A stretch of DNA of 63,731 nucleotides from a virus. Taxonomy: Duplodnaviria; Caudoviricetes. Location of the stretch: the IMG/VR virus record IMGVR_UViG_3300033145_001147, positions 1 to 63,731 of that record. One strand, written 5' to 3'. Shown here piece after piece: positions 15,176-61,487 of this stretch. The position numbers and the translations under genes are program-made. The number at the start of each line of letters is the position of its first letter. Position 1 is the stretch's first letter. Below the pieces are notes generated by a model that saw only the letters and a list, made by a program, of their open reading frames with translations, did no database searches and was not told the DNA's origin.

Positions 15176-15760
15176 ATGGATTTAAAATGTTTAAATAAAC
15201 AATGTAATAAAACCTTTTCTGTGGTGGCATCTTCCAAAAGAAAATATTGTAGTCAGAAATGTTATTGGGCAGATAAAAAAAGCCGAGGGTTGATTCCGCC
15301 ATCAAGAAAAGGAGCAAAATTAACAATAAAACATAAACAGATATTAAGTAAATATAACAAAGGAAGAATACATAATGACACAATGAGAAAAAAGAGTAGT
15401 ATTGCCAAACTTGGTAAAAATAATCCTATGTATGGCAAAATAGGTGATAAACATCCTAATTGGGTGGGGAATAAAATTAAACATTTTGATAAAAGAATTA
15501 GACATTGTTCTTTATATATTCAATGGCGTTCAAATATTTTTCAGAGAGATGGTTGGATTTGCCAAACTTGTGGTGTAAGGGGTGGTAAATTACAAGTTCA
15601 TCATATCAAATCATTTGCTGAAATTTTACAGAATAATCATATTAAGACTTTTGAACAAGCAATAAATTGTAAAGAATTATGGAATTTAGATAATGGTATT
15701 ACGCTTTGCGAAGATTGTCATAAATTAACACAAAGTTATAAACAAAGAATTATTAAATAA
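15176..15760 (+). CDS. HNH homing endonuclease
   Basis: RDGWICQTC...QVHHIK...NGITLCEDCH. Confidence 0.88.
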   Translation: MDLKCLNKQCNKTFSVVASSKRKYCSQKCYWADKKSRGLIPPSRKGAKLTIKHKQILSKYNKGRIHNDTMRKKSSIAKLGKNNPMYGKIGDKHPNWVGNKIKHFDKRIRHCSLYIQWRSNIFQRDGWICQTCGVRGGKLQVHHIKSFAEILQNNHIKTFEQAINCKELWNLDNGITLCEDCHKLTQSYKQRIIK

Positions 15761-27244: not shown

Positions 27245-27377
27245 AGCAAAGGTGTCGTAGAGGAGAGTTACTTCAACTATTAATTGAAAGGTCGTTGGTT
27301 CGAGTCCAACCAAATCTTCGGATTTGTAGCTCAGTTGGTAGAGCATTATGTTCTTTTTTCGTTTGTTACCCTTTGCT
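27245..27377 (+). ncRNA. Y RNA (YrlA-like) 2 with tRNA-like domain
   Basis: same terminal motifs; T arm GTTGGTTCGAGTCCAAC, CAAATC-TTCG-GATTTG, D arm GCTCAGTTGGTAGAGC. Confidence 0.82.
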
Positions 27378-27626: not shown

Positions 27627-27698
27627 GGCTCTATCATCTAATGGTAGGATAGCAGGTTTTCGACCTGATAATCGTGGGTTCAATTCCCCGTGGAGTCA
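27627..27698 (+). tRNA. tRNA-Glu(TTC), atypical
   Basis: cloverleaf GGCTCTA/TGGAGTC, anticodon loop TTTTCGA, bulged T stem, no encoded CCA. Confidence 0.7.
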
Positions 27699-27775: not shown

Positions 27776-27847
27776 TGCGGGTAGGACGAATGGTAAGTCA
27801 GAAGCCTCATAAGCTTTAGAAATGGGTTCGATTCCCATACTCCGCAA
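27776..27847 (+). tRNA. tRNA with CAT anticodon (Met or Ile2), atypical acceptor stem
   Basis: GAAGC-CTCATAA-GCTTT anticodon arm, ATGGG-TTCGATT-CCCAT T arm. Confidence 0.7.
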
Positions 27848-30428: not shown

Positions 30429-30503
30429 GGTGGATGTGGTGTAATGGTAGCACTTTATTCTGTGAAAATGACAGATTGGGTTCGAATCTCAACTTCCACC
30501 CCA
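30429..30503 (+). tRNA. tRNA-His(GTG)
   Basis: cloverleaf, G-1:C73, anticodon loop CTGTGAA, encoded CCA. Confidence 0.85.
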
Positions 30504-49082: not shown

Positions 49083-52000
49083 ATGAATTTTATAGATAAA
49101 CTAAAAAATGTTTTTGGGAAAAACAAAATAAACGAAAATGAAGGGTCTAAAATAACACCTACTGGTTATGAAGCTTATGGATTAGGAAGTTTTTTTGAAA
49201 GCTCTAACAAAACAAAAGAATATTTAGATGAGTTAAAAGGTTGGGTTGGTGCTGCTACTACAGCAATCGCTGATGATGTTGCTTCTATTCAATTACATTT
49301 ATATAGACAAAAAGGAGATGATATAGAAGAAGTAACAGAACATCCAGTTCTGGATTTGCTTTTCAAAATAAATAGTTTTACTTCTAAATTTGACCATTTC
49401 TGGCTAACACAAACTTACTTGGAACTTACTGGTGAAGCTCCTTGGTTTATAGATAAGAAAGGAAAAGAAATCAAAAATATTTTCCTATTAAGACCAGACA
49501 AAATAAAACCAATAGCAGGAAAGAGTAGAATGATTGAAGGATATGAATATGAAATTGGATTAGGTGAAACAGTTAAATTAGATAATGATGAAGTTATCTT
49601 CTTAAAGAATCCAAACCCAGCTAAACCTTTTAGGGGGATTGGAACATTACAAATGGCTGCTAAGATTGTTGATATTGATAACTTCTCTGAAGATTGGAAT
49701 AAACAATTTTATCAAAACTCTGCAAGACCAGATGCTATCCTTACTGTAGATACAGATAAATTAAATGACGAACAAAAAGATAAACTAAAGAAATCACTTA
49801 AAGAATCTTATGAAGGAACACGAAATGCTCATAAGACAATGGTGTTGTTTGGTAATATGACTTTTGAAAAATCAAGTTTCTCTGCAAAAGATATGGATTT
49901 CTTAGAACAACAAAGATTTAGTAGAGATAAGATTCTTGGTATCTTCCGAGTGCCTAAAGCTATTGTGGCTCAAACAGAAGGTGTAAACTTTGCTTCTGCT
50001 AAAGCTGCTCAATATATTTTTGCAAAGTGGACAATCAAACCAAAGATGGAAAGATTGATTCAACAATTAAATGAATTCTTACTTCCTTTATTTAGTGACA
50101 CAGAAAATATGTTCCTAGATTATGATAGTCCTGTCCCTGAAGATGATGAATTGAAGTTAAAGAAATATGAAAGTGGATTAAGAAATAATTACCTTACAAT
50201 CAATGAAGTTAGAAATGAAGAAGGATTGCCTGAAGTTGAAGGGGGAGATGTGATTTATGTTTCTGGAAGTATTAGACCTTTAGGAGAACCTGAACAACCA
50301 TCAGAAAAACCAGAAGAAGGAAAGACTCTTAAATTGAAAAAGGGTGCTATTTATAAATCTAAGTTCTCATCAGATAGATTATATGAAATGAAAGCTAGAG
50401 GTAGAAAATTCTTCCAAAGAAGAAAAGAAACAGAAGCACTTAAAGATAAAATTAGAGCTTCTCTAAAAGAAGAATTAGAAAAAGGAAAAGTTAAAGATAA
50501 TAAACATAAACATAAATTGATTACTAAAGAAATTAATAATGATGGAAATGTTCGTAGAGAATTATCTGCTGAAGAAATATTTAATTTCTGGACAGTTAAA
50601 AATAAAATCTTTGACAAATATCAAAAAAAAGTTGAAGAAGATTTAGTAAAAGTATTTAATACTCAAAGAAAAATTGTATTAGGAAAACTAGGAAAGAAAA
50701 AAGATGTTCATTTCAAAGCTTCTTCTGATTTGTATAATACAATTAAATTAAATAAGAAAAAGGAAGTAGAAAGAACACTAGTTCTAACTTTACCTACATT
50801 AACTGCTTTATTCAAAGAAGCTGGTGATGAAACTTTTGATATGATGGATTTGACTATGAGTATGGATATGGAAAGAGAAGAAATCAAAAAACTATTGAAA
50901 GAAAAAGGAAGGTTGTTTGCTGTAAATGTAACAGATACAACTAATGATTTTATAAAGAAACAAGTAGTAGATGGGATTGCTAAAGGAGATAGTATTCCAA
51001 AAATTAAGAAAAGAATTGTAGGAGTATTTGATTCTGCTACAGAGTTTAGAGCAGAAAGAATTGCAAGAACCGAATCATTGAAATATAGCACAAGAGCAAC
51101 AGAACAAGCTTTCAAAGATTCTGGGATAGTTGAAGGTAAAATGTGGGTTACAGACCCAGACCCTTGTCCTTTATGTCAAGAATTAGCAGGGAGAACAGCT
51201 CCTTTAGGTGGCAATTTTGTCAAGAAAGGTGGTTCTGTTCTAGGTAATGTTTTTGATTACGAAGATATCCCAACACCGCCATTACATCCGAATTCATATC
51301 ATAAGGATACCGAAATTTTAACTAAAGATGGGTGGAAACAAGTTTCTGATTTGAAATGTAAAGATAAATGTTTGTCTCTGAATCCTAAAAATTTTAATTT
51401 AGAATATGTTTCTGTAATTAATACTATTGCACATAAAGAAGATAGATTAATTTCATTTCAAAGTAATAATTTTTCTTTAATGACTACAGGTAATCATAGT
51501 ATGTTTTATCAAACAGATTGGAATGCAAAAAATAATAAAAAGAAATGGAATTTTGTTGAATCAAAATCATTATTAGGTAAAAAGGCAGGAAGATTTTATA
51601 GAAGTAGTAACTGGATTGGCAAAGAATATAAAAAAATAAAACTTGGAAATAAACTTGTTTCCTTTAATACCTATTGTAAATTTATGGGGTGGTATTTATC
51701 AGAAGGAAGTGTCTCAAGAAATCATGTGAACATTGCTCAAAGTAAAGAGAAAAATTTTGAAAAGTGGTGTTCTATTAAGGAATTATTAAATGATATAAAT
51801 TTTAAGATTTATGAAAACAAAAATCAATTTGAAATCAATGATAAAAAATTAGCCGAACAGTTAAAAGTTTTTGGTAAGTCTTTTGAAAAGTATGTTCCTG
51901 AAAATATTAAGAATGCTGATTCTAAATATATCAGATGTTTTCTGGATACTTTTATTGCAGGAGATGGTAATATAAGAGAATCTAGAAAATGGGGAGGATT

Positions 52001-52367
52001 TAATTGGCAACCAGAAAAAACTTATTTTACTTCTTCCCAAAAATTAGCAGATGATTTAGGCGAACTTATTCTAAAAATTGGGAAAAGACCATCATATTAT
52101 TTACAGAAAAGTAAAGGGATAGAAGTTGAACACAAGAATGGGAAATATATTGGTAATCATGATATTTGGATTATAAGAGAATGTAAGTCACAATATGCTT
52201 ATGTTGCAAATATGGATATTCAAGAAGTTAAGTATGATGATATGGTATATTGTGTTGAACTTGAAAAATATCATACGCTTTATGTTAGATATAATGGAAA
52301 GGTTACTTGGTCAGGAAATTGCAAATGTGATATTGCCCCAGTGTTTAAGTCTAAAAAGTCGAATTAA
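49083..52367 (+). CDS. HK97-family portal fused to MuF/SPP1 gp7 head morphogenesis domain, with intein
   Basis: portal motifs (GEAPW, FYQNSARP, IFRVP, LTINEVR); MuF RAERIARTE, CPLC, HPN-CKC. Confidence 0.9.
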   Translation: MNFIDKLKNVFGKNKINENEGSKITPTGYEAYGLGSFFESSNKTKEYLDELKGWVGAATTAIADDVASIQLHLYRQKGDDIEEVTEHPVLDLLFKINSFTSKFDHFWLTQTYLELTGEAPWFIDKKGKEIKNIFLLRPDKIKPIAGKSRMIEGYEYEIGLGETVKLDNDEVIFLKNPNPAKPFRGIGTLQMAAKIVDIDNFSEDWNKQFYQNSARPDAILTVDTDKLNDEQKDKLKKSLKESYEGTRNAHKTMVLFGNMTFEKSSFSAKDMDFLEQQRFSRDKILGIFRVPKAIVAQTEGVNFASAKAAQYIFAKWTIKPKMERLIQQLNEFLLPLFSDTENMFLDYDSPVPEDDELKLKKYESGLRNNYLTINEVRNEEGLPEVEGGDVIYVSGSIRPLGEPEQPSEKPEEGKTLKLKKGAIYKSKFSSDRLYEMKARGRKFFQRRKETEALKDKIRASLKEELEKGKVKDNKHKHKLITKEINNDGNVRRELSAEEIFNFWTVKNKIFDKYQKKVEEDLVKVFNTQRKIVLGKLGKKKDVHFKASSDLYNTIKLNKKKEVERTLVLTLPTLTALFKEAGDETFDMMDLTMSMDMEREEIKKLLKEKGRLFAVNVTDTTNDFIKKQVVDGIAKGDSIPKIKKRIVGVFDSATEFRAERIARTESLKYSTRATEQAFKDSGIVEGKMWVTDPDPCPLCQELAGRTAPLGGNFVKKGGSVLGNVFDYEDIPTPPLHPNSYHKDTEILTKDGWKQVSDLKCKDKCLSLNPKNFNLEYVSVINTIAHKEDRLISFQSNNFSLMTTGNHSMFYQTDWNAKNNKKKWNFVESKSLLGKKAGRFYRSSNWIGKEYKKIKLGNKLVSFNTYCKFMGWYLSEGSVSRNHVNIAQSKEKNFEKWCSIKELLNDINFKIYENKNQFEINDKKLAEQLKVFGKSFEKYVPENIKNADSKYIRCFLDTFIAGDGNIRESRKWGGFNWQPEKTYFTSSQKLADDLGELILKIGKRPSYYLQKSKGIEVEHKNGKYIGNHDIWIIRECKSQYAYVANMDIQEVKYDDMVYCVELEKYHTLYVRYNGKVTWSGNCKCDIAPVFKSKKSN
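51294..52319 (+). mobile_element. intein (342 aa) with LAGLIDADG endonuclease in the MuF domain
   Basis: starts SYHKDTEILT, TGNH block B, GWYLSEG and FIAGDG, ends WSGN followed by Cys. Confidence 0.88.
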
Positions 52368-52439: not shown

Positions 52440-54533
52440 ATGGATAAAGAAACAAAAATTCTTCAAGCAACAACAGAAAAAGGCTCTAATGGAGTTCTTA
52501 CTGCTATTGCTTCAACTGAAGACCAAGATAGAGCTGGAGATATTCTTTCTGTAAAGCAATGGGATTTTAGTAAATTCAAAATGAATCCTGTATTACAAGC
52601 TGGTCATAAATATGACCCACAATTTACAATTGGAATCGCCAAAAATATTAGAGTGGAAGGTAAAAAAGTTCTTTTTGAACCTATTTTCCATTCAATTACT
52701 CCATTAGCAAAACAAATTAAAGAAATGTATGAAAAGGGCTTTTTGAAAGCTTGGAGTGTTGGATTTATTCCAGCCGAAGATGAAAAAGGATTTCATGAAT
52801 TATTAGAGGTTTCAGCTGTTGCTGTTCCTGCTAATGCTTTTGCTTTAATGAAAGGATTTGAAAAAGATAATATTGAAGTAGAAATGAAAAATTGGGTAGA
52901 AAAAGAATTAGAAGAAAAAGGAAAAGATGTAGAAACAATAGAAACTCCAGAAGAAGCTGAAGAAAAAGAAGAAACTCCTAGGTTAAAAGAAGAAGTTGTA
53001 GAAGAAGTTGAAGAAAAAAATTATACTCCTTGGAATAAAACGTTGCCAAGTATTTTTGCACAAAAAGATTTTGATATTACTACTGTAAAACCAGAAGCAA
53101 TGACTTTTGAAAACAAAATCTTTACTAAGTTTTTTGACTGTAAGGTTAAAGACTTGTATTTGAATTTTCATAGTATCCCTTCTCCATTATTGGGTTCGTA
53201 TTTATCAGCTTTCAAAAAGACTTTAGCTGATTATGAATTAGTAGATACTAGAAATTGGCATGGAAATGCAGAGTTTCCACCTCAATATAAAACTATTCAG
53301 TTAAATTCAAAAGAAAATGATAGTTTCTTGGTAGAAGGAACAATATTCTATAAAGTTGCTGGTAGAAATGCTTTAGCAATTAGTTTCTATCCTACTTGGG
53401 CAGGAATTGTTGTTGAAATTGTTACTCATAAAGAAAAAAGAGAATGGAGTGAAGAATTATTACAAAAAATTCACACTTGGGTAGACCAAAATAATTATTT
53501 AAGAGGAGAAAAATTTGCTTTAAGTGGAGAATTTATTCCTACAGGGAATAAACAATGGGAAGATATAATTGCTGATGAAAATAATATTAAGGCACTTAAA
53601 CAAGGAATGAAAGTGTTAGAATCTAATTCTAATAAGAGTAGAGGGTTATTATTTGTAGGTCCTCCTGGAACTGGAAAGACTTTAACAGGAAAAGTTTTAA
53701 TGGACAATACTGATGCAACATTTATTTGGATTTCAAGTAAAGATATGGATAGAGTTGGTGCTGTTACTGCATTAAAGATGGGATTCAAATTAGCAAGAGA
53801 TTTAGGACCTTCAATATTATTTATGGAAGATATTGATTACTGGATTAAAGGATATGCGATTGATACATTAAAAACTGAATTAGATGGTATGCATGAAAAT
53901 AATAAAGTGCTTACAATTTTAACATCTAACTTCCCTGAAGATTTACCTGATGCTCTATTAGATAGACCAGGAAGATTCCATGAAATTCTAAATTATGATT
54001 TACCAACAAAAGAAATTCGTTCAGAAATGATATTAAAATGGGCAGAAGTAAATAAGAAAACAGCAGATAGTATTGCCGAATTAACAGAAGGATTATCAGG
54101 TGCTCATATTAAAGAATTAGTAGAATATGCAAAAAATATTTCAGAAGATGACAAATTAGAAATGGCAGAAGCTTTGTTAAAGAGTTTAGAAAAAATGACA
54201 GCACAGAAAGAGTTGATAACTAATATTAGACAAAGTAAGAAAAGTTTTGCTATAATAGAGAAGGAAGGAAAAGTTATTTCTAAAAAGAATATGGAAAAAC
54301 TTGTTACTGCAAAAGAAGCTTTGGAAGCAGTAATAGGAATAGATAAATCAGAAGAAGAACCAGACCTTACTGAAAAGTTTATACAAGATTTAGAAATAGC
54401 CGTTAAAGAAATTGAAGAAAATGAAATGAATAAAAAATTAAATGATAAAGAAATGCTTACAAAGACATTACAGAAGATTTCAAAATCAAGTAATAAGACC
54501 CTGTGTGAAAGAAAGAAAGCAGGAATTAAATAA
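52440..54533 (+). CDS. HK97-type prohead protease fused to AAA+ ATPase
   Basis: ASTEDQDR, H, WSVGF, LLEVSAVAVPAN; then GPPGTGKT, FMEDID, LDRPGRF. Confidence 0.88.
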   Translation: MDKETKILQATTEKGSNGVLTAIASTEDQDRAGDILSVKQWDFSKFKMNPVLQAGHKYDPQFTIGIAKNIRVEGKKVLFEPIFHSITPLAKQIKEMYEKGFLKAWSVGFIPAEDEKGFHELLEVSAVAVPANAFALMKGFEKDNIEVEMKNWVEKELEEKGKDVETIETPEEAEEKEETPRLKEEVVEEVEEKNYTPWNKTLPSIFAQKDFDITTVKPEAMTFENKIFTKFFDCKVKDLYLNFHSIPSPLLGSYLSAFKKTLADYELVDTRNWHGNAEFPPQYKTIQLNSKENDSFLVEGTIFYKVAGRNALAISFYPTWAGIVVEIVTHKEKREWSEELLQKIHTWVDQNNYLRGEKFALSGEFIPTGNKQWEDIIADENNIKALKQGMKVLESNSNKSRGLLFVGPPGTGKTLTGKVLMDNTDATFIWISSKDMDRVGAVTALKMGFKLARDLGPSILFMEDIDYWIKGYAIDTLKTELDGMHENNKVLTILTSNFPEDLPDALLDRPGRFHEILNYDLPTKEIRSEMILKWAEVNKKTADSIAELTEGLSGAHIKELVEYAKNISEDDKLEMAEALLKSLEKMTAQKELITNIRQSKKSFAIIEKEGKVISKKNMEKLVTAKEALEAVIGIDKSEEEPDLTEKFIQDLEIAVKEIEENEMNKKLNDKEMLTKTLQKISKSSNKTLCERKKAGIK

Positions 54534-54660: not shown

Positions 54661-55104
54661 ATGAAAAAATTGAAAATCGGAGATAAATACTATGAACTAA
54701 AGGAAGTTGATAAAACTACTACAGAAGAAGTTCCTGCAGAAACACCTGCAGAAGAAGTTCCTGCTGAAGTTGTTGAAGAAACTTCTGTAGTTGAAGAAAC
54801 TCCCGTAGAAGAACCTACAGAAAATGTGGACAAAAAAATTGAAGCTGCTACAGAAAAAATCGTTGCCTCATTAGGGTTAGATAAAATTCATGAAAAACTA
54901 GATGTTCTTTCTGAAAAGAAAGAAGTTAAAGACACTAAACCATCTGCTTTGATTGATTTAGAAACTTTAATGAAGAAAGATGTCAGTGAAATGACAACTA
55001 AGGAAAAAATTGTTGGATTTTTCCAAGCTATGATTAAGAATAACCAACCTGTTTTGAAAGCTCTTTCTGAAGGAACTGCTGCTGATGGAGGATATCTATT
55101 CCCT
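54661..55104 (+). CDS. major capsid protein exon 1
   Basis: acidic delta-domain-like N-terminus ending GTAADGGYLFP. Confidence 0.88.
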
Positions 55105-55950
55105 AAATTCGTTGGGGCATAAGTATGTGAGTATTTATGAAAATTCGGTGAATTGCTGGAAACTCCTAAAAAGGACAATCAGCAGCCAAGTTATTATCTA
55201 AATGGTAATAAAAGGTTCAACGACTAGGTTTTGAAACTCTTTTAGAGAATATAATAAACCCATGAGTGCCGAACTTCTTGAATTTAGAACTGAAGTATTA
55301 TATAATAGTTATATGAGAAAAGGTTCAAAAATGACAATTAAACAAAGAAAAAGAGTAAGTGAAGGACATCTTGGACAACCAGGTTGGAATAAAGGTAAAA
55401 AGATGTCAAAAGAGTTTTGTGAAAAAATAAGAATTGCCAATTTAGAAGGAAGATGTGGAATGAAAGGTAGAAAACATAGTGCTGAAACTAAATTGAAACA
55501 AAGTAAAAGTAATAAAACAAAACTTCTTTGGAAAAATCCTGAATACCGAAAAATGATGTCAGAAAAACATAAATGGCAGAGTGGTAAAAATAATCCAGCA
55601 TATATAGACGGAAGAAAACCATTAGTAATGAGAATAAGACATCATCCTAAAATGAAAAATTGGATTAAACAGGTTTTTGAAAGAGATAATTATATTTGTC
55701 AGGATTGTAAACAGCGAGGCAAAAAATTAGAAGCTCATCATTTATATCCTTTTTCAAAAATAATTACTGAATATAAAATAAAGACCATCAAACAAGCCTT
55801 ACAATGTGAAATAATGTGGGACTTGAATAATGGACAAACTCTTTGTAAAAATTGTCATAAAAAAATAAATACAAGAAGATGATATAGTCTGACCTGCAAC
55901 TATATATAAAATTGCAGAAGTAGTAATTAAAAAAACTACGATAACATATG
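55105..55950 (+). mobile_element. group I intron 1 in major capsid gene
   Basis: U.G P1, GAATTGCTGGAA, AATCAGCAG, CAACGACTA, GATATAGTC, terminal G. Confidence 0.9.
55313..55882 (+). CDS. intron-encoded HNH endonuclease (NUMOD3 repeats)
   Basis: VFERDNYICQDC..AHH..NGQTLCKNCH; promoter TTGAAT-17-TATAAT 55278-55306. Confidence 0.88.
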   Translation: MRKGSKMTIKQRKRVSEGHLGQPGWNKGKKMSKEFCEKIRIANLEGRCGMKGRKHSAETKLKQSKSNKTKLLWKNPEYRKMMSEKHKWQSGKNNPAYIDGRKPLVMRIRHHPKMKNWIKQVFERDNYICQDCKQRGKKLEAHHLYPFSKIITEYKIKTIKQALQCEIMWDLNNGQTLCKNCHKKINTRR

Positions 55951-56165
55951 GACGAATTCAGATATGAAATCATTAGAGATATCGCAGAAGATAGCCATAG
56001 AATGAGAAATGATGTGACTGTTGTTCCTATGAAAAGAGATGTTATGAATATCCCTTCATTGGAATCTAGACCACAAGTAACATGGACGGAAGAAAATGCT
56101 ACTAAATCTACAACAACTGCTCATTTTGGTCAAATCACTTTGACAGTAAAGAAAATGGCTGCCAT
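55951..56165 (+). CDS. major capsid protein exon 2
   Basis: DEFRYEII...WTEENATK...FGQITLTVKKMAA. Confidence 0.88.
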
Positions 56166-56907
56166 TAACTTACAAGGTGGCAGAAGGGTGCGAACCCTAA
56201 AGAAAAATGCCGTGAATTGCTGGAACACCCAAAATGGAATAAGAAGCCCATATTGGACAATCAGCAGCCAAGCTTTACCAGTAATGGTTTAGAAGGTTCA
56301 ACGACTAGGGAGCGAATCCTTGATAGGATAGTAATCTCCCCACGAGCGCGGTGCTCTGTTCTTTAACAAATTACATTTGATAAGCAAGAGATTTTAATAT
56401 ATAATATATATATGAATAAAAAATCACTAGCAAATCTTACATATAAATATAAAAAAGGTTGTATTCCTTGGAACAAAGGATTGTCTGCAAAAAATAATGA
56501 GTCAATGAAAAAAATTGCAGAATCAAGAAAAGGAAATAAACATCCTTTGTGGAAAGGTGGAAAAGCAAAAGCAACTGGAGGATACATTAAAATTAAAATG
56601 CCAAATCATCCAAATGCTAATTGTGAAGGATATATTTTAGAACATCGTTTAGTTATGGGAAAAGTTTTAAAAAGAAATCTTTTACCTCATGAAGAAGTTC
56701 ATCATATAAATGGTATAAAAGATGATAATCGTCCAGAAAATTTAGAGATTGTCCTTAAATATAAACATTTTGGAAATATTTGCTGTCCATATTGTAAGAA
56801 AAATTTTAAAATCAAATAATTTGTTAAAGAACAGAAGATGATATAGTCTGACCTTTATGGTAACATAAAGAAGTATTGGATAAAGAGCCAATATAATAAC
56901 AAAAATG
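56166..56907 (+). mobile_element. group I intron 2 in major capsid gene
   Basis: P1 CTGCCAT/GTGGCAG, P10 TACAAG/CTTGTA, conserved core, terminal G 56907. Confidence 0.9.
56412..56819 (+). CDS. intron-encoded HNH endonuclease
   Basis: EHRLVM...VHHINGIKDDNRPENL; promoter TTGATA-17-TATAAT. Confidence 0.88.
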   Translation: MNKKSLANLTYKYKKGCIPWNKGLSAKNNESMKKIAESRKGNKHPLWKGGKAKATGGYIKIKMPNHPNANCEGYILEHRLVMGKVLKRNLLPHEEVHHINGIKDDNRPENLEIVLKYKHFGNICCPYCKKNFKIK

Positions 56908-57418
56908 CTTGTATGCTTCTGATGAATTGATTGATGATGCATCTGAAATTGATATTGTAAACTTCATCATAGGATTATTCTCTGAAGCTATCGGAGAAGA
57001 AGAAGATAGAGTTGTTTGGAGAGGTAATGGAACTACAGAACCTACAGGAATTGTAACAGCACAAGCTACTGGAACTATTTCAGGAAGAACTTGTTCAGGA
57101 AACCTTTCAGTTGATAACATGATTGATTTGTTATATGATTTGCCAGCAAAATGGCAAAAGAATGCTAAACTATATGTTCATAGAACAAATATTAGAGAAT
57201 TGCGAAAATTGAAGGATTCTAATAACAGATACTATTGGTCAGAACCAGTAGCAGCTGGATTAGCTCCTACATTTATGGGATACTCTGTTATTGAAACTAA
57301 TGAATTAAGTGAAGCACAAATTTACTTTGGAGATATGAAAAAGACTTACTGGTTAGGTGACCGTCAAAAGATGACAGTTAAAATATCGCAAGATACTGAA
57401 ACTGCCTTTACGAAGGAT
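56908..57418 (+). CDS. major capsid protein exon 3
   Basis: LYASDELIDDA...GNGTTEPTGI...LKDSNNRY...FGD...AFTKD. Confidence 0.9.
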
Positions 57419-58356
57419 GGAGAAATTTGGTCCTTCAAAAAGGGGGTGAACTGCTGGAACATCCAAGAAGGAATTTTAAGTCCTTATTGGACAATCAGCA
57501 ACCAAGCTTTCGCAGTAATGCGTTAGAAGGCTCAGAGCATAGATTCCGAGTCCAGAATGGACAGTAATGAATCCACGAGTGCCCTCCAGTTCTTTTACAA
57601 TAGAATATATAGAATAATATTTGATTTTTTGTTAAAATAATTATATAATTATATATATAATATATGATTAAACGTGAAATTATCAAAAAATGGAAATCTG
57701 GTAGAGGTTACAGGTATTTGTTAATTTGTCAGAATTGTGGTGAAGAATTTGAAAAATGTGGGAAACAAATTAATAATGATAAATGTTATTTTTGTTCAGT
57801 TAAATGTAGTAATTCTTTCCCTAAAAAAATAAAACAAATTAATCAGACTAAACAAAATAGATATAAGCAACAAAAACAAAATTCTGGTTATGCTTTTACA
57901 TTAAAAGCAAGGAGAAGAATGAGTGTTGGGCAAAAAGGAAAACCAATATGGAATAAGGGAAAATTTGGTGAAGCAATGCCAAATTGGCAAGGAGGAATAT
58001 CTTTTGAACCTTATACTGCAGAATTTAATAACGGATTAAAATTACAGATTAGAAAAAGAGATAATTACACTTGTCAAGAATGTGGTAAAACAGAAAAACA
58101 ATTAAAAAGAAAGTTAAGTATCCATCACATTGATTATAATAAAAAAAATAATGATGAAAATAATTTAATTTCTCTTTGTAGTAAATGTCACGGAAAAACT
58201 AATTTTAAGAGAAAAGATTGGACAACATATTTCCAAAAAAAATAAAATATTATTCTATGTATTCTATGTAAAAGAATTGATGATATATGCCGAACTGCAA
58301 CTATATATAAAATTGCAGAAGTAGAAGATAAAAAACTTTTACGATAACAAAAATTG
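57419..58356 (+). mobile_element. group I intron 3 in major capsid gene
   Basis: P1 GAAGGAT/GTCCTTC, core with covarying P7 (GCATA/TATGC), terminal G 58356. Confidence 0.88.
57664..58245 (+). CDS. intron-encoded HNH endonuclease
   Basis: RDNYTCQEC..IHHIDYNK..NLISLCSKCH. Confidence 0.88.
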   Translation: MIKREIIKKWKSGRGYRYLLICQNCGEEFEKCGKQINNDKCYFCSVKCSNSFPKKIKQINQTKQNRYKQQKQNSGYAFTLKARRRMSVGQKGKPIWNKGKFGEAMPNWQGGISFEPYTAEFNNGLKLQIRKRDNYTCQECGKTEKQLKRKLSIHHIDYNKKNNDENNLISLCSKCHGKTNFKRKDWTTYFQKK

Positions 58357-58440
58357 CAAACTGCTATCAGAGTTGTTTCAAGAATTGCTGGTAACGTTGT
58401 ATTAGGAGCTTCTTGTCGAGCTTTAGTTCAAATTCCTTAA
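58357..58440 (+). CDS. major capsid protein exon 4
   Basis: QTAIRVVSRIAGNVVLGASCRALVQIP*; not in the ORF track. Confidence 0.85.
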   Translation, partial: QTAIRVVSRIAGNVVLGASCRALVQIP

Positions 58441-59394: not shown

Positions 59395-60264
59395 ATGAAT
59401 AATAAAAGTAATGCATCTTATGGAATGTTAGGAAAGAAACATTCCCAAAAAACGAAAGAAAAGATTTCTAAATGTAATAAAGGAAATCAAAATACATTAG
59501 GAAAACATTGGAAATGGTCTAAACCTAAACAAGACAGAAAACAATCGCCTGAACATAAAGAAAAAGTTCGTAAATCAAAACTTGGTGTTGCTCGTCCTGA
59601 TATGATAGGAAATACTTATGGTTTTATTAAGGGTCAAACTTCATTGAATAAAGGGAAACAAGCTTCAAAAGAAACTCGGGTAAAACAACGTTTGGCTAAA
59701 CTTGGGACAACTCTTTCAAAAGAAACTCGGCAAAAGATTTCGCAAAAGTTAAAAGGATTAAAACGTTCTGAAGAAACAAAAAGACGTATTTCTGAAGCAA
59801 AAAAAGGGAAGAATAATCCTGCAAAACAAAAATGGGTAAGAGAAAAAATGTCAGAAGTTGCAAGTCGGCAAGATGTTATAGACAAGAAAGAACGAATTAA
59901 AAAATATTCTGGGACATCAATTGAATTGATAATGCGTAAAGAATTAACTCGTAGAAAAATAGAATTTGAACCAAATTATCAATTGATGAATAAATATAAT
60001 GTTGACATGTATATTAAACCAGATATTGTAATAGAATGTGACGGAGATTATTGGCATAATAGACCAGGTTGTCAAGAAAAAGATAAAAAACGTGATATTG
60101 ATTTGAAGAATAATGGTTATCAAGTATTTCGTTTTTGGGAAAAAGAAATTAATACTGATATTAAACAATATGTTGATAAGTTATTGAAATCAATTATTAG
60201 TAATTGTAATAAGTGCAAAAAATCATATGAAGAAAAAAGTAATAAAAAAGAAATCAAAAATTGA
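59395..60264 (+). CDS. NUMOD3-repeat plus Vsr/DUF559-type homing endonuclease
   Basis: repeated SKETR motifs; VD, IECDGDYWH, FRFWE. Confidence 0.85.
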   Translation: MNNKSNASYGMLGKKHSQKTKEKISKCNKGNQNTLGKHWKWSKPKQDRKQSPEHKEKVRKSKLGVARPDMIGNTYGFIKGQTSLNKGKQASKETRVKQRLAKLGTTLSKETRQKISQKLKGLKRSEETKRRISEAKKGKNNPAKQKWVREKMSEVASRQDVIDKKERIKKYSGTSIELIMRKELTRRKIEFEPNYQLMNKYNVDMYIKPDIVIECDGDYWHNRPGCQEKDKKRDIDLKNNGYQVFRFWEKEINTDIKQYVDKLLKSIISNCNKCKKSYEEKSNKKEIKN

Positions 60265-60880
60265 TGTTCTTTTAGAAAAAAATAATCTCGGTGTGAAATT
60301 AGACATTGGCTGTGGTGCAAATAAGCAAGAAGGATTTGTCGGAATGGATGTTAGAGATTTGCCTAATGTGGATATTGTTCAAAACATAGAACAATTCCCT
60401 TGGGCTTTACCCGATGAATCCGTTTCTCTTGCTACAGCTTCTCATGTATTAGAACATATCAACCCAGGAAGCACAGACCCAAGATTAGTAGCTCTTATTA
60501 ATTTATTAGAAAAGAAAAAGATTCTTTCTAAAAAAGAAATAAAAGATGCCATTGGGAATGTTGAAGTTTTTGGAGTGTTTATGTCTTTTATGAATGAAGT
60601 TTGGAGGATACTAAAACCAAAAGGTAGATTTGCCTTTGTGGTGCCTTATGCGGGTTCTCCTGGGTTTTTTCAAGACCCAACACATATTAATCCAATAACT
60701 GAAGCTACGTTATCTTATTTTGACCCATTAGATAGAAGTGGAATGTATTATATTTACGAACCAGCTCCTTGGCAAATAATAAATAGTAGTTTTGACACAA
60801 TAGGCAATTTAGAAGTATTGTTAGAGAAACGCCAAGATGATATTTCTTATCATGTTGATAAAAAAATTAAATATGTCTAA
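60227..60880 (+). CDS. class I SAM-dependent methyltransferase-like protein
   Basis: KLDIGCG, SHVLEH, RILKPKG, DPTH. Confidence 0.8.
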   Translation: MKKKVIKKKSKIDVLLEKNNLGVKLDIGCGANKQEGFVGMDVRDLPNVDIVQNIEQFPWALPDESVSLATASHVLEHINPGSTDPRLVALINLLEKKKILSKKEIKDAIGNVEVFGVFMSFMNEVWRILKPKGRFAFVVPYAGSPGFFQDPTHINPITEATLSYFDPLDRSGMYYIYEPAPWQIINSSFDTIGNLEVLLEKRQDDISYHVDKKIKYV

Positions 60881-61487
60881 CAAAGTTTATAAAAAGACAA
60901 AGTCTTGGAAATGGAGTAAGGAATCTAAAGAACGGTTTAGTGAATATTGTAAACAGATAAAAAGAAGACCTCCGACTAGAAAAGGAATTCCAAATACTGA
61001 ACAACAAAAAGAAAAAATAAGAAAAACTTGGAAAAAAATTATTGAAATGAATGGTGGAAAGCACCCTTACGTTAAACCAATGTATGGTGAAGACAATCCA
61101 TCTAAAAGGAAAGATGTTCGTGAAAAAATTAGTCAAAAGTTGAAAATTGCATCTCTAGAAAGATTTAAAAATAAAGAAAATCATCCAAGATGGTTAGGTG
61201 GTAAATCTTTTGAAGATTATGGTTTTAATTGGACTAAAACATTAAAAAAATCAATCAGACAACGAGATAATTATATTTGCCAAGAATGTGGAATACATCA
61301 AAATAACTTAATTGGTAGATTAAAAAGATTAGATGTCCATCATATTGATTATAATAAAAAGAACTGTAGTCCAAACAATTTAATTTCCCTTTGCCGACAA
61401 TGTCATGCAAAAACGGGTATTAATAGAGATTATTGGAAACAGTTGTTTACAGATAAAAATTATAAACCTTTAAGTAATGAAAAATAA
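60873..61487 (+). CDS. HNH homing endonuclease
   Basis: RDNYICQEC..VHHIDYNK..NLISLCRQCH. Confidence 0.88.
   Translation: MSNKVYKKTKSWKWSKESKERFSEYCKQIKRRPPTRKGIPNTEQQKEKIRKTWKKIIEMNGGKHPYVKPMYGEDNPSKRKDVREKISQKLKIASLERFKNKENHPRWLGGKSFEDYGFNWTKTLKKSIRQRDNYICQECGIHQNNLIGRLKRLDVHHIDYNKKNCSPNNLISLCRQCHAKTGINRDYWKQLFTDKNYKPLSNEK

Follow-up and report, generated by a model that had tools for sequence, protein, structure and literature searches.

Introduction

The group I introns of the td, nrdB and sunY genes of phage T4 and of the DNA polymerase gene of SPO1 belong to subgroup IA2 and carry homing endonuclease genes in a peripheral loop; these open reading frames (ORFs) use expression signals of their own, and the introns home into intron-less alleles in mixed infection. 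In Staphylococcus phage Twort, the orf142 gene reportedly contains three group I introns, which are said to be short, to lack endonuclease genes and to show exon skipping between neighbours. Capsid genes have also been found interrupted: in the crAss-like Zeta-group phage cMAG OLRF01000054 the gene of the major capsid protein (MCP) is described as lying in five fragments (Yutin et al. 2021, PMC7886860), and splicing of the capsid-gene intron of mycobacteriophage LittleE (Cluster J) is reported as proven by reverse-transcription PCR and N-terminal protein sequencing (Pope et al. 2013, PMC3706429), in an article that also cites a capsid-gene intron in lactococcal phage Tuc2009. Moreover, two or three group I introns per gene are described in the DNA polymerase and terminase genes of Bastillevirinae (PMC11878797), and the Jug phages are stated to have a mean of 18.5 introns per genome, mostly of about 206 nucleotides (nt), the splicing of 37 of 76 predicted introns being backed by metatranscriptome reads (PMC12880540). 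The subject of the present work is the major capsid gene at positions 54661-58440, + strand, of IMG/VR record IMGVR_UViG_3300033145_001147 (Caudoviricetes; linear, metagenome-assembled), the whole 63,731 bases of which are called the window below. In this region four capsid-like ORF pieces alternate with three HNH-domain ORFs.

The reading put forward, which is held to be very probable, is that the sole HK97-family major capsid gene of the record is split by three mobile group I introns of one RNA family, which would be self-splicing and would spread by HNH-mediated homing. Among known phage records no near-identical DNA was found, and the best capsid protein match was 38.8% identical; there was therefore no annotated close relative to copy from.

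The capsid gene and its exon junctions

Joining the four exons (444 + 215 + 511 + 84 nt; Table 1) gives 1254 nt, that is, 417 codons and TAA with no internal stop. The original prediction had proposed this join as an uninterrupted protein of 417 amino acids (aa); its coordinates proved exact to the base, and the junctions that it had named are all found as such on reading the sequence. The first, ...TATCTATTCCCT/GACGAATTC, joins YLFP/DEF in phase 0; the second, ...GCTGCCAT/CTTGTATGC, rebuilds an Ile codon split AT/C, which is followed by LYAS (AAI/LYAS); and the third, ...ACGAAGGAT/CAAACTGCT, joins FTKD/QTAIR, again in phase 0.

The identity of the product as an HK97-family capsid, also claimed beforehand, is borne out by matches to PF05065 (Phage_capsid; cut-off 24.2 bits) in exons 2 and 3, which are the only matches to this profile in the whole record. 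Exon 2 (31.2 bits) covers profile positions 8-78 and exon 3 (122.6 bits) positions 81-255, so that the profile continues from one exon to the next, the split codon falling between the two. The same continuity is seen with phrog_10 (major head protein), where exon 2 matches positions 372-442 and exon 3 positions 446-610. Furthermore, the closest homolog of the capsid protein (P0001), which is uninterrupted and 91% identical over exon 3, matches solved capsids, among them HK97 gp5 (1ohg, E 6e-5) and 6tba (E 4e-19). From these matches to solved structures, an HK97 fold may be inferred for the product.

Homologs were searched with exon 3 as the query, among longer proteins only, and 188 proteins at E<=1e-5 were obtained from 959 candidates; in the best 120 of these 188 the length is nearly always 355-435 aa, three proteins being of 320-334 aa. 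Alignment to intronless capsid homologs had been named beforehand as a check of the join, and it was carried out with the joined product and the 12 best homologs. Junctions 1 and 2 are gap-free in 12 of 12 (GGYLFPDEFR and KKMAAILYASDEL, respectively), and junction 3 is gap-free in 11 of 12, with T(K/R)DQTAIRV; the twelfth homolog, P0004, leaves the alignment after ETA to enter a read-through of its own intron. The joined product is collinear with homologs of 400-422 aa: the N-terminus and the end of exon 1 are collinear with P0001-P0012, and exon 4 with the C-termini in 11 of the 12 aligned homologs.

Empty sites are found as well. The contiguous capsid DNA of three intron-less relatives (L003, L004 and L005) fits the joined exon ends in 25-33 of 36 bases, and empty sites therefore exist. 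At sites 1 and 3, the insertion sites of introns 1 and 3, the codons of L003 and L004 end in A or C (CCA, GAC) and those of the window in T (CCT, GAT), while L005 agrees with the window at site 1 (CCT) and with L003 and L004 at site 3 (GAC); the T of the window is the base needed for the U.G pair described below. In an alignment of 25 sequences the insertion sites fall in invariant or near-invariant residues (P153/D154, A223-A224-I225 and D395/T397, in P0001 numbering), as would be expected of homing targets.

Unspliced read-through from exons 1, 2 and 3 meets a stop after 5, 43 and 35 codons, with no capsid-like continuation. Therefore a full-length capsid protein would need three splicing events, as the original prediction had held; this requirement is inferred from the sequence.

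Structure of the three introns

The splice sites of all three introns carry the signals of group I splicing. P1 is formed by the last 4-7 bases of the exon with a guide sequence located 10-12 nt inside the intron, the pairings being CCCU with GGGG, CUGCCAU with GUGGCAG and GAAGGAU with GUCCUUC in introns 1, 2 and 3, respectively. In all three the U that ends the exon stands opposite a G, as is the case for the final T of exon 1 and its guide. The strand directly 5' of the P1 strand pairs with the next exon as P10, over 8, 6 and 4 base pairs (bp) in introns 1, 2 and 3; the last of these involves the first four bases of exon 4. The guide of intron 1 thus consists of a P10 strand at 55106-55113 and a P1 strand at 55114-55117, that of intron 2 of P10 at 56171-56176 and P1 at 56177-56183, and that of intron 3 of P10 at 57426-57429 and P1 at 57430-57436.

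The core was modelled from relatives. Junctions in these were placed where the frame continues and ungapped similarity is highest, with T as the last base of the exon and G as that of the intron, and a covariance model (R1) was built from the P3-to-P3' cores of 16 introns in other phage contigs, the window being left out. With these 16 introns RNAalifold recovered P3, P4, P5, P6, P7.1 and P7.2, with compensatory change in 21 of 32 pairs, and in the aligned 3' parts of 19 introns 7 of 8 pairs of P9 and P9.1 covary. P7.1 and P7.2, one nested in the other, come after the 5' strand of P7 and before the 3' strand of P3 (alignment columns 105-109/149-153 and 115-116/139-140), and the outer helix has 8-10 double changes per pair; their presence is the one feature by which the architecture is classed, from sequence, as IA-type. 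Run on both strands of the window, R1 gave exactly three matches, with E from 2e-31 to 4e-35 and all 133 model positions covered: 55141-55274 in intron 1 (134.3 bits), 56205-56354 in intron 2 (125.7 bits) and 57439-57587 in intron 3 (121.0 bits). Nothing beyond these three appeared in the window, on either strand, at E<=1.

P7 pairs across the ORFs in 19 of 19 introns, and in 17 of these it consists of GACUA with UAGUC. Intron 3 of the window and the intron at site G of locus L078 have instead GCAUA with UAUGC, in which two adjacent pairs are swapped on both strands and the G-C pair is kept; such a compensatory swap argues that the helix is still needed. P8 stems, present in all introns compared, are closed around every ORF: in intron 1 UUCUUG (55275-55280) pairs with CAAGAA (55872-55877), in intron 2 the stem 56355-56367/56823-56835 encloses the ORF, and in intron 3 a stem of about 50 bp surrounds it. 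The predicted set of three group I introns with HNH genes is therefore upheld, each having a U.G P1, a covarying core, a terminal G and an HNH domain.

The curated model gives a less complete picture. With Rfam RF00028, for which the gathering score is 50, intron 1 reaches 65.7 bits; intron 2 gives 47.0 bits for its 5' part and a separate 30.9 bits for a 3' part (56782-56868), both under the gathering score; and intron 3 has no match to RF00028 even at E<=10. The endonuclease ORFs divide the cores, and intron 3 is missed because the P7 swap alters the J6/7-P7 consensus.

The introns share core sequences: identity is 74% over 167 nt between introns 2 and 3, and 83% over the final 81 nt between introns 1 and 3. 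As a separate observation, introns 1 and 3 have in common a 30-nt identical stretch over P9, at 55893-55922 and 58294-58323 (CTGCAAC...TTGCAGAAGTAG), which is without counterpart in the other 17 aligned introns of the family, including the site-1 orthologs of intron 1; it suggests a gene-conversion patch between two introns of one gene. The idea that intron 3 is a chimera, its 5' half resembling intron 2 and its 3' end intron 1, was considered and dropped, its 5' core being about equally near to several members of the family (74-78%); all that is left of the idea is the 30-nt stretch of P9 that is identical in intron 1.

The endonuclease genes

The three HNH ORFs lie on the + strand of their introns, between the two P8 strands. 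All of them match HNH endonuclease families of PHROG, while their Pfam domains differ (Table 1). Among solved structures, the intron 3 enzyme has a weak match to the HNH endonuclease of PDB 5h0m (E 5e-5), and the same search with the intron 1 and intron 2 endonucleases gave no match. The longest ORF of intron 1 begins at 55262, but that ATG is within the ribozyme core; the start at 55313 (ATGAGAAAAGG) is the one common to the ortholog in locus L037.

Promoter-like sequences precede the three genes. In intron 2, TTGATA-17-TATAAT (11 of 12 positions, the best of the region) occupies 56377-56405 and ends 6 nt before the ATG of the HNH gene, and the same hexamers and spacings occur in the ortholog in locus L075. 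In intron 1, TTGAAT-17-TATAAT at 55278-55306 ends 6 nt before the start at 55313, and two overlapping matches lie just 5' of the intron 3 ORF (57664). These placements suggest, weakly, that the HNH genes are expressed separately from sigma-70-like promoters of their own, possibly as leaderless mRNAs.

Other endonuclease genes are found in the record. Two that belong to no detected intron follow closely on the capsid gene, at 59395-60264 and 60837-61487, one of them with NUMOD3 and DUF559/Vsr-like domains and the other with HNH. The free-standing HNH gene (stretch 61185-61458) and the HNH gene of intron 3 are 68% identical in nucleotides over 278 nt. Moreover, HNH-like stretches resembling the intron 1 gene occur near 15587, 22924 and 33236.

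The intron family in related capsid genes

The relatives are 80 loci obtained by scanning viral contigs with a capsid alignment, and in 14 of them the capsid gene is interrupted. Over these 80 loci R1 gave 33 matches at E<=1e-3, of which 31 (56-146 bits; 16 of them the training sequences) are on the capsid strand within the capsid genes of the 14 loci; the other two, in L006 and L008, are weak and outside the capsid gene. Rfam at the gathering score gave 9 group I matches across the 14 loci searched. The remaining 66 loci have no family intron in the sequence stretch covered. Locus L063 was rejected as intron-bearing and is not counted: it has a frame change without insert and without R1 match.

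The 31 introns of the relatives occupy 12 sites and the window adds a thirteenth, which brings the family to 34 introns at 13 sites (Table 1). Six introns are present in the capsid gene of L078, four in that of L082 and three each in L068 and the window, while seven loci have two and four loci have one. Exons become very short in the richest cases: L078 (1012-6167) has mini-exons of 30 nt (TAADGGYLFP) and 54 nt, and L082 (584-4984) has an 11-nt micro-exon (CTTATACGCCT) between two of its introns. Introns without ORF, of 255-267 nt, also exist in capsid genes of the relatives, one of them at site 2.

Site 1 holds an intron in 5 of the 80 loci and site 2 in 6, and such differences among relatives between filled and empty sites constitute a footprint of mobility. 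Over its full length, intron 1 has 78% identity with the intron that L040 carries at site 1, the flanking exons being 72-75% identical; the full-length figure for intron 2 and its counterpart at site 2 of L075 is 72%, and there the exons reach about 60%. As an informal comparison, these values agree with a movement of introns between phages. Furthermore, the exon ends are alike across sites, with CUGCCAU, CUGCGU or CUGCAU at sites 2, G and H and GGGU at A, B and F, according to the junction tables of L044, L045, L061, L066, L068, L075, L078 and L082. This likeness could reflect the spread of one intron lineage to sites with matching targets for its guide sequence.

Site 3 is occupied in none of the 80 loci, and a pattern search of viral contigs with the guide sequence and P3/P4 of intron 3 returned no stretch. 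Beyond these loci, the site is occupied in two database proteins, P0129 and P0168, which run from FTKD into intron read-through. In P0129, from a 129-kb contig, the read-through GSEHRVRV, which spans the 5' strand of P7, corresponds to GSEHRFRV in the window, and from this protein sequence its site-3 intron can be read as having the same GCAUA variant of P7.

A different arrangement was observed in three relatives (L040:4690-5840, L042:1560-2600 and L037:4690-4964), in which the capsid ORF is uninterrupted up to its own stop and a family intron follows immediately. The intron is followed, in L040 and L042, by the last ~30 codons repeated in diverged form. The post-stop intron has the guide GCGUAGU, whose partner ACUGCGU is found at site G, 5' of the first copy of these codons. 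In those relatives, therefore, a complete capsid protein would be encoded whether or not the RNA is spliced, only the C-terminus being different.

Table 1. Positions of the capsid exons, introns and intron-borne genes in the window, and of the intron sites of the family (sites in the numbering of the window protein)
Feature	Position	Strand	Details
Capsid exon 1	54661..55104	+	444 nt, 148 codons; N-terminal acidic delta-like region; ends ...ADGGYLFP
Group I intron 1	55105..55950	+	846 nt; site 148/149, phase 0; terminal G at 55950
Intron 1 HNH gene	55313..55882	+	in P8 loop; Pfam HNH_2 25.5 bits (cut-off 21); PHROG HNH endonuclease families
Capsid exon 2	55951..56165	+	215 nt; DEFRYE...KKMAA and AT of Ile codon
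Group I intron 2	56166..56907	+	742 nt; after codon 219 + 2 nt; ends in G
Intron 2 HNH_3-type gene	56412..56819	+	in P8 loop; HNH_3 31.6 bits (cut-off 24.8); phrog_20891 HNH endonuclease, E 2e-30
Capsid exon 3	56908..57418	+	511 nt; C of Ile codon and LYASDEL...ETAFTKD
Group I intron 3	57419..58356	+	938 nt; site 390/391, phase 0; terminal G at 58356
Intron 3 HNH gene	57664..58245	+	in P8 loop; Pfam HNH 32.4 bits (cut-off 21.4); phrog_1271, E 8e-19
Capsid exon 4	58357..58440	+	84 nt; 27 codons QTAIRVVSRIAGNVV...QIP and TAA
Site A	138/139		2 loci
Site B	144 + 1 nt		3 loci
Site 1	148/149		window and 5 loci
Unnamed site	166/167		1 locus
Site C	about 193/194		1 locus; ambiguous within a 4-nt repeat
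Site 2	219 + 2 nt		window and 6 loci
Unnamed site	223 + 1 nt		1 locus
Site D	about 287 (probable)		1 locus
Site E	344 + 1 nt		1 locus
Site F	366 + 1 nt		1 locus
Site G	386 + 1 nt		6 loci
Site 3	390/391		window only, as compared with the 80 related loci
Site H	393 + 2 nt		3 loci

Genomic setting

The capsid gene is set in a head-morphogenesis module, since a portal/Mu-F-like gene and a prohead-protease-like gene are found 5' of it (Pfam, PHROG). The record has a G+C content of 28% and a CheckV completeness estimate of 77%. Directly 5' of the capsid gene, an ORF of 697 aa (52440-54533) combines a prohead-protease-like N-terminal region (phrog_80, head maturation protease) with an AAA ATPase domain (Pfam AAA, 69 bits), which is an unusual fusion. 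In the portal/Mu-F-like fusion ORF (49083-52367), an intein is located at about 51294-52319, in the motif PPLHPN/S...WSGN/CKC; its matches to Pfam Intein_splicing and LAGLIDADG_3 are both under their cut-offs. Elsewhere in the record, a match to YrlA (Y-RNA-like, RF02553) at 27264-27375 scores 44.4 bits (E 1e-6), under the gathering score of 69; two tRNA genes (27627-27698 and 27777-27846) lie just 3' of it, and a third is at 30430-30500.

Alternative explanations

Several points weigh against the reading of three mobile, self-splicing introns. The curated Rfam threshold is reached by intron 1 alone, and intron 3, with its altered J6/7-P7 consensus, is invisible to RF00028; the activity of the latter is predicted from compensatory pairing and family membership. 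Splicing itself is deduced rather than observed in RNA or reads: a word-match search found no RNA runs with the 3.78-kb stretch, and two DNA runs of one study share about 6% of it. The target sites of the endonucleases are putative, and the promoter-like matches (31, as against 23.1 +/- 4.7 in shuffled sequence) show no significant enrichment in this genome of low G+C. Finally, a second, intact capsid gene could sit in the part of the genome that the record lacks.

It might be argued that the inserts are group I introns by descent, of which at least one, most likely intron 3, no longer self-splices and may need a protein helper, or that the contig is a defective variant with a dead capsid gene. 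The failure of intron 3 to match RF00028, the score of intron 2 under the gathering threshold and the search for RNA runs, which found none with this stretch, speak for such an explanation. However, intron 3 scores 121 bits with R1 over all the model positions, both strands of its P7 have changed together, and the same P7 variant recurs in the site-G intron of L078 and, if its protein read-through is taken in that way, in the contig of P0129. In addition, the exons are intact, with 91% identity to an uninterrupted homolog, and no other capsid gene is seen in the record. This alternative is accordingly regarded as improbable.

Lower still is the probability given to two further explanations. 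The inserts could be free-standing HNH cassettes or inteins, the capsid being built from separate fragments or by protein splicing; the record does contain free-standing endonuclease genes, and its portal gene carries an intein. An intein is contradicted by the stops that close the capsid frame 5, 43 and 35 codons into the inserts, and mere cassettes by a structured, covarying ribozyme core in every insert, by the position of the start of exon 2 and the end of exon 3 inside conserved motifs, with one codon split, and by the existence of ORF-less introns in capsid genes of the relatives, so that this explanation is very hard to sustain. The other is that of an assembly artefact, a contig made of intron-containing and intron-less strains, with no real genome having all three introns, which would be conceivable for a linear record assembled from a metagenome whose relatives are polymorphic at each site. 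Nevertheless, independent contigs have 2, 3, 4 and 6 family introns in one capsid gene, identity is continuous along the exon sequence, and the 30-nt P9 identity of introns 1 and 3, lacking in the orthologs, fits their residence in one genome; a chimeric contig is therefore most unlikely.

Proposed mechanism and significance

Under the preferred reading of three mobile group I introns, each intron would be transcribed inside the capsid pre-mRNA and would fold into its P3-P9 core. The 5' splice site would be chosen by the guide sequence, forming P1 with its U.G pair, and the next exon would be aligned via P10 before the intron is excised at its terminal G; three such events would yield the mRNA for the 417-aa capsid protein. 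Because the three introns share core sequences, mis-pairing and exon skipping among them are conceivable. The distinct P1/P10 pairs argue for an ordered splicing. That splicing might also time late expression is a conjecture of the original prediction. The different HNH gene in each P8 loop would be expressed, probably from a promoter of its own, and in mixed infections the enzymes would cut or nick, at the conserved target, those capsid alleles of related phages that have no intron. Repair would then copy the intron into the cut allele (homing).

At the level of the family, a further proposal is made with some reserve, being regarded as possible rather than probable: one IA-type lineage may have radiated within one capsid gene family, to at least 13 sites, up to six introns per gene and exons down to 11 nt, by ectopic insertion at similar exon ends and exchange of parts between introns of one gene. 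If this were true, the capsid gene would be more than the passive victim of three unrelated invasions: it would be a place where introns breed and acquire new targets by way of their guide sequences. The main interest of the locus lies in the pattern at family level, in which one ribozyme lineage occupies 13 sites of a single gene, with as many as six introns together.

The consequences are both practical and biological. Gene callers break this capsid gene into several short ORFs, and at least 60 part-length capsid proteins of this kind are present in public protein sets; many of these start at an intron site or continue into it, but in some a contig end may be the sole cause of the shortening. 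The intron load of uncultured phages is probably under-counted, because the curated Rfam threshold finds one of the three introns here and the family-specific model all three. Moreover, three ribozymes would have to act on one transcript to give the most highly expressed late protein, so that splicing should be efficient and ordered. With its 34 members at 13 sites of one gene, the family is a natural data set on how group I introns and HNH nucleases change targets. The same set could address their role in competition between co-infecting phages, a role that is reported as shown for an intron nuclease of PhiPA3 (PMC11620839).

Comparison with known systems

The arrangement of three group I introns in one phage protein gene resembles that reported for Twort orf142, the host gene and the phage being different; the risk of exon skipping that is said to exist there would also apply here, by analogy, through the shared core sequences. 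The T4 and SPO1 introns, in contrast, are in genes of nucleotide metabolism or replication, with one intron per gene.

The Bastillevirinae and Jug phages, in the accounts given in PMC11878797 and PMC12880540, share with the present locus the occurrence of several group I introns per essential gene, and an often partial recognition by Rfam that is due to an endonuclease ORF in a long loop; the genes described in those accounts are unlike the present one, being those of DNA polymerase, terminase and nucleotide metabolism and not of the capsid. Closer in gene content is LittleE. As presented in PMC3706429, it has an HK97-like capsid gene with an intron of ~0.8 kb that contains an HNH gene, the exon closing with U and the intron with G. 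Its junction adjoins a GGY motif close to where the mature capsid begins, a position comparable to that of sites B and 1 here. The LittleE gene is described there with a single intron and an HNH gene on the opposite strand, whereas here the introns are three and their HNH genes co-oriented; its intron type is called unclear by the authors, most likely group I, while here the ribozyme family is set by covariation.

The nearest parallel for a capsid gene in several fragments is that of OLRF01000054, likewise from metagenomic material and with splicing inferred (PMC7886860). It belongs to another phage lineage, and its introns, as that article describes them, were found via signature protein domains, mainly endonucleases; in comparison with that description, the ribozymes, guides and junctions of the present gene are resolved to the base, with an HNH gene in each of the three P8 loops. 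A literature search, which left most subscription journals outside, found no article dealing with this capsid family or with a capsid gene that has three introns with endonuclease genes. Phage capsid genes with group I introns, and with several introns, are thus already known, and the gene analysed here is a well-supported further case of a capsid gene with mobile self-splicing introns.

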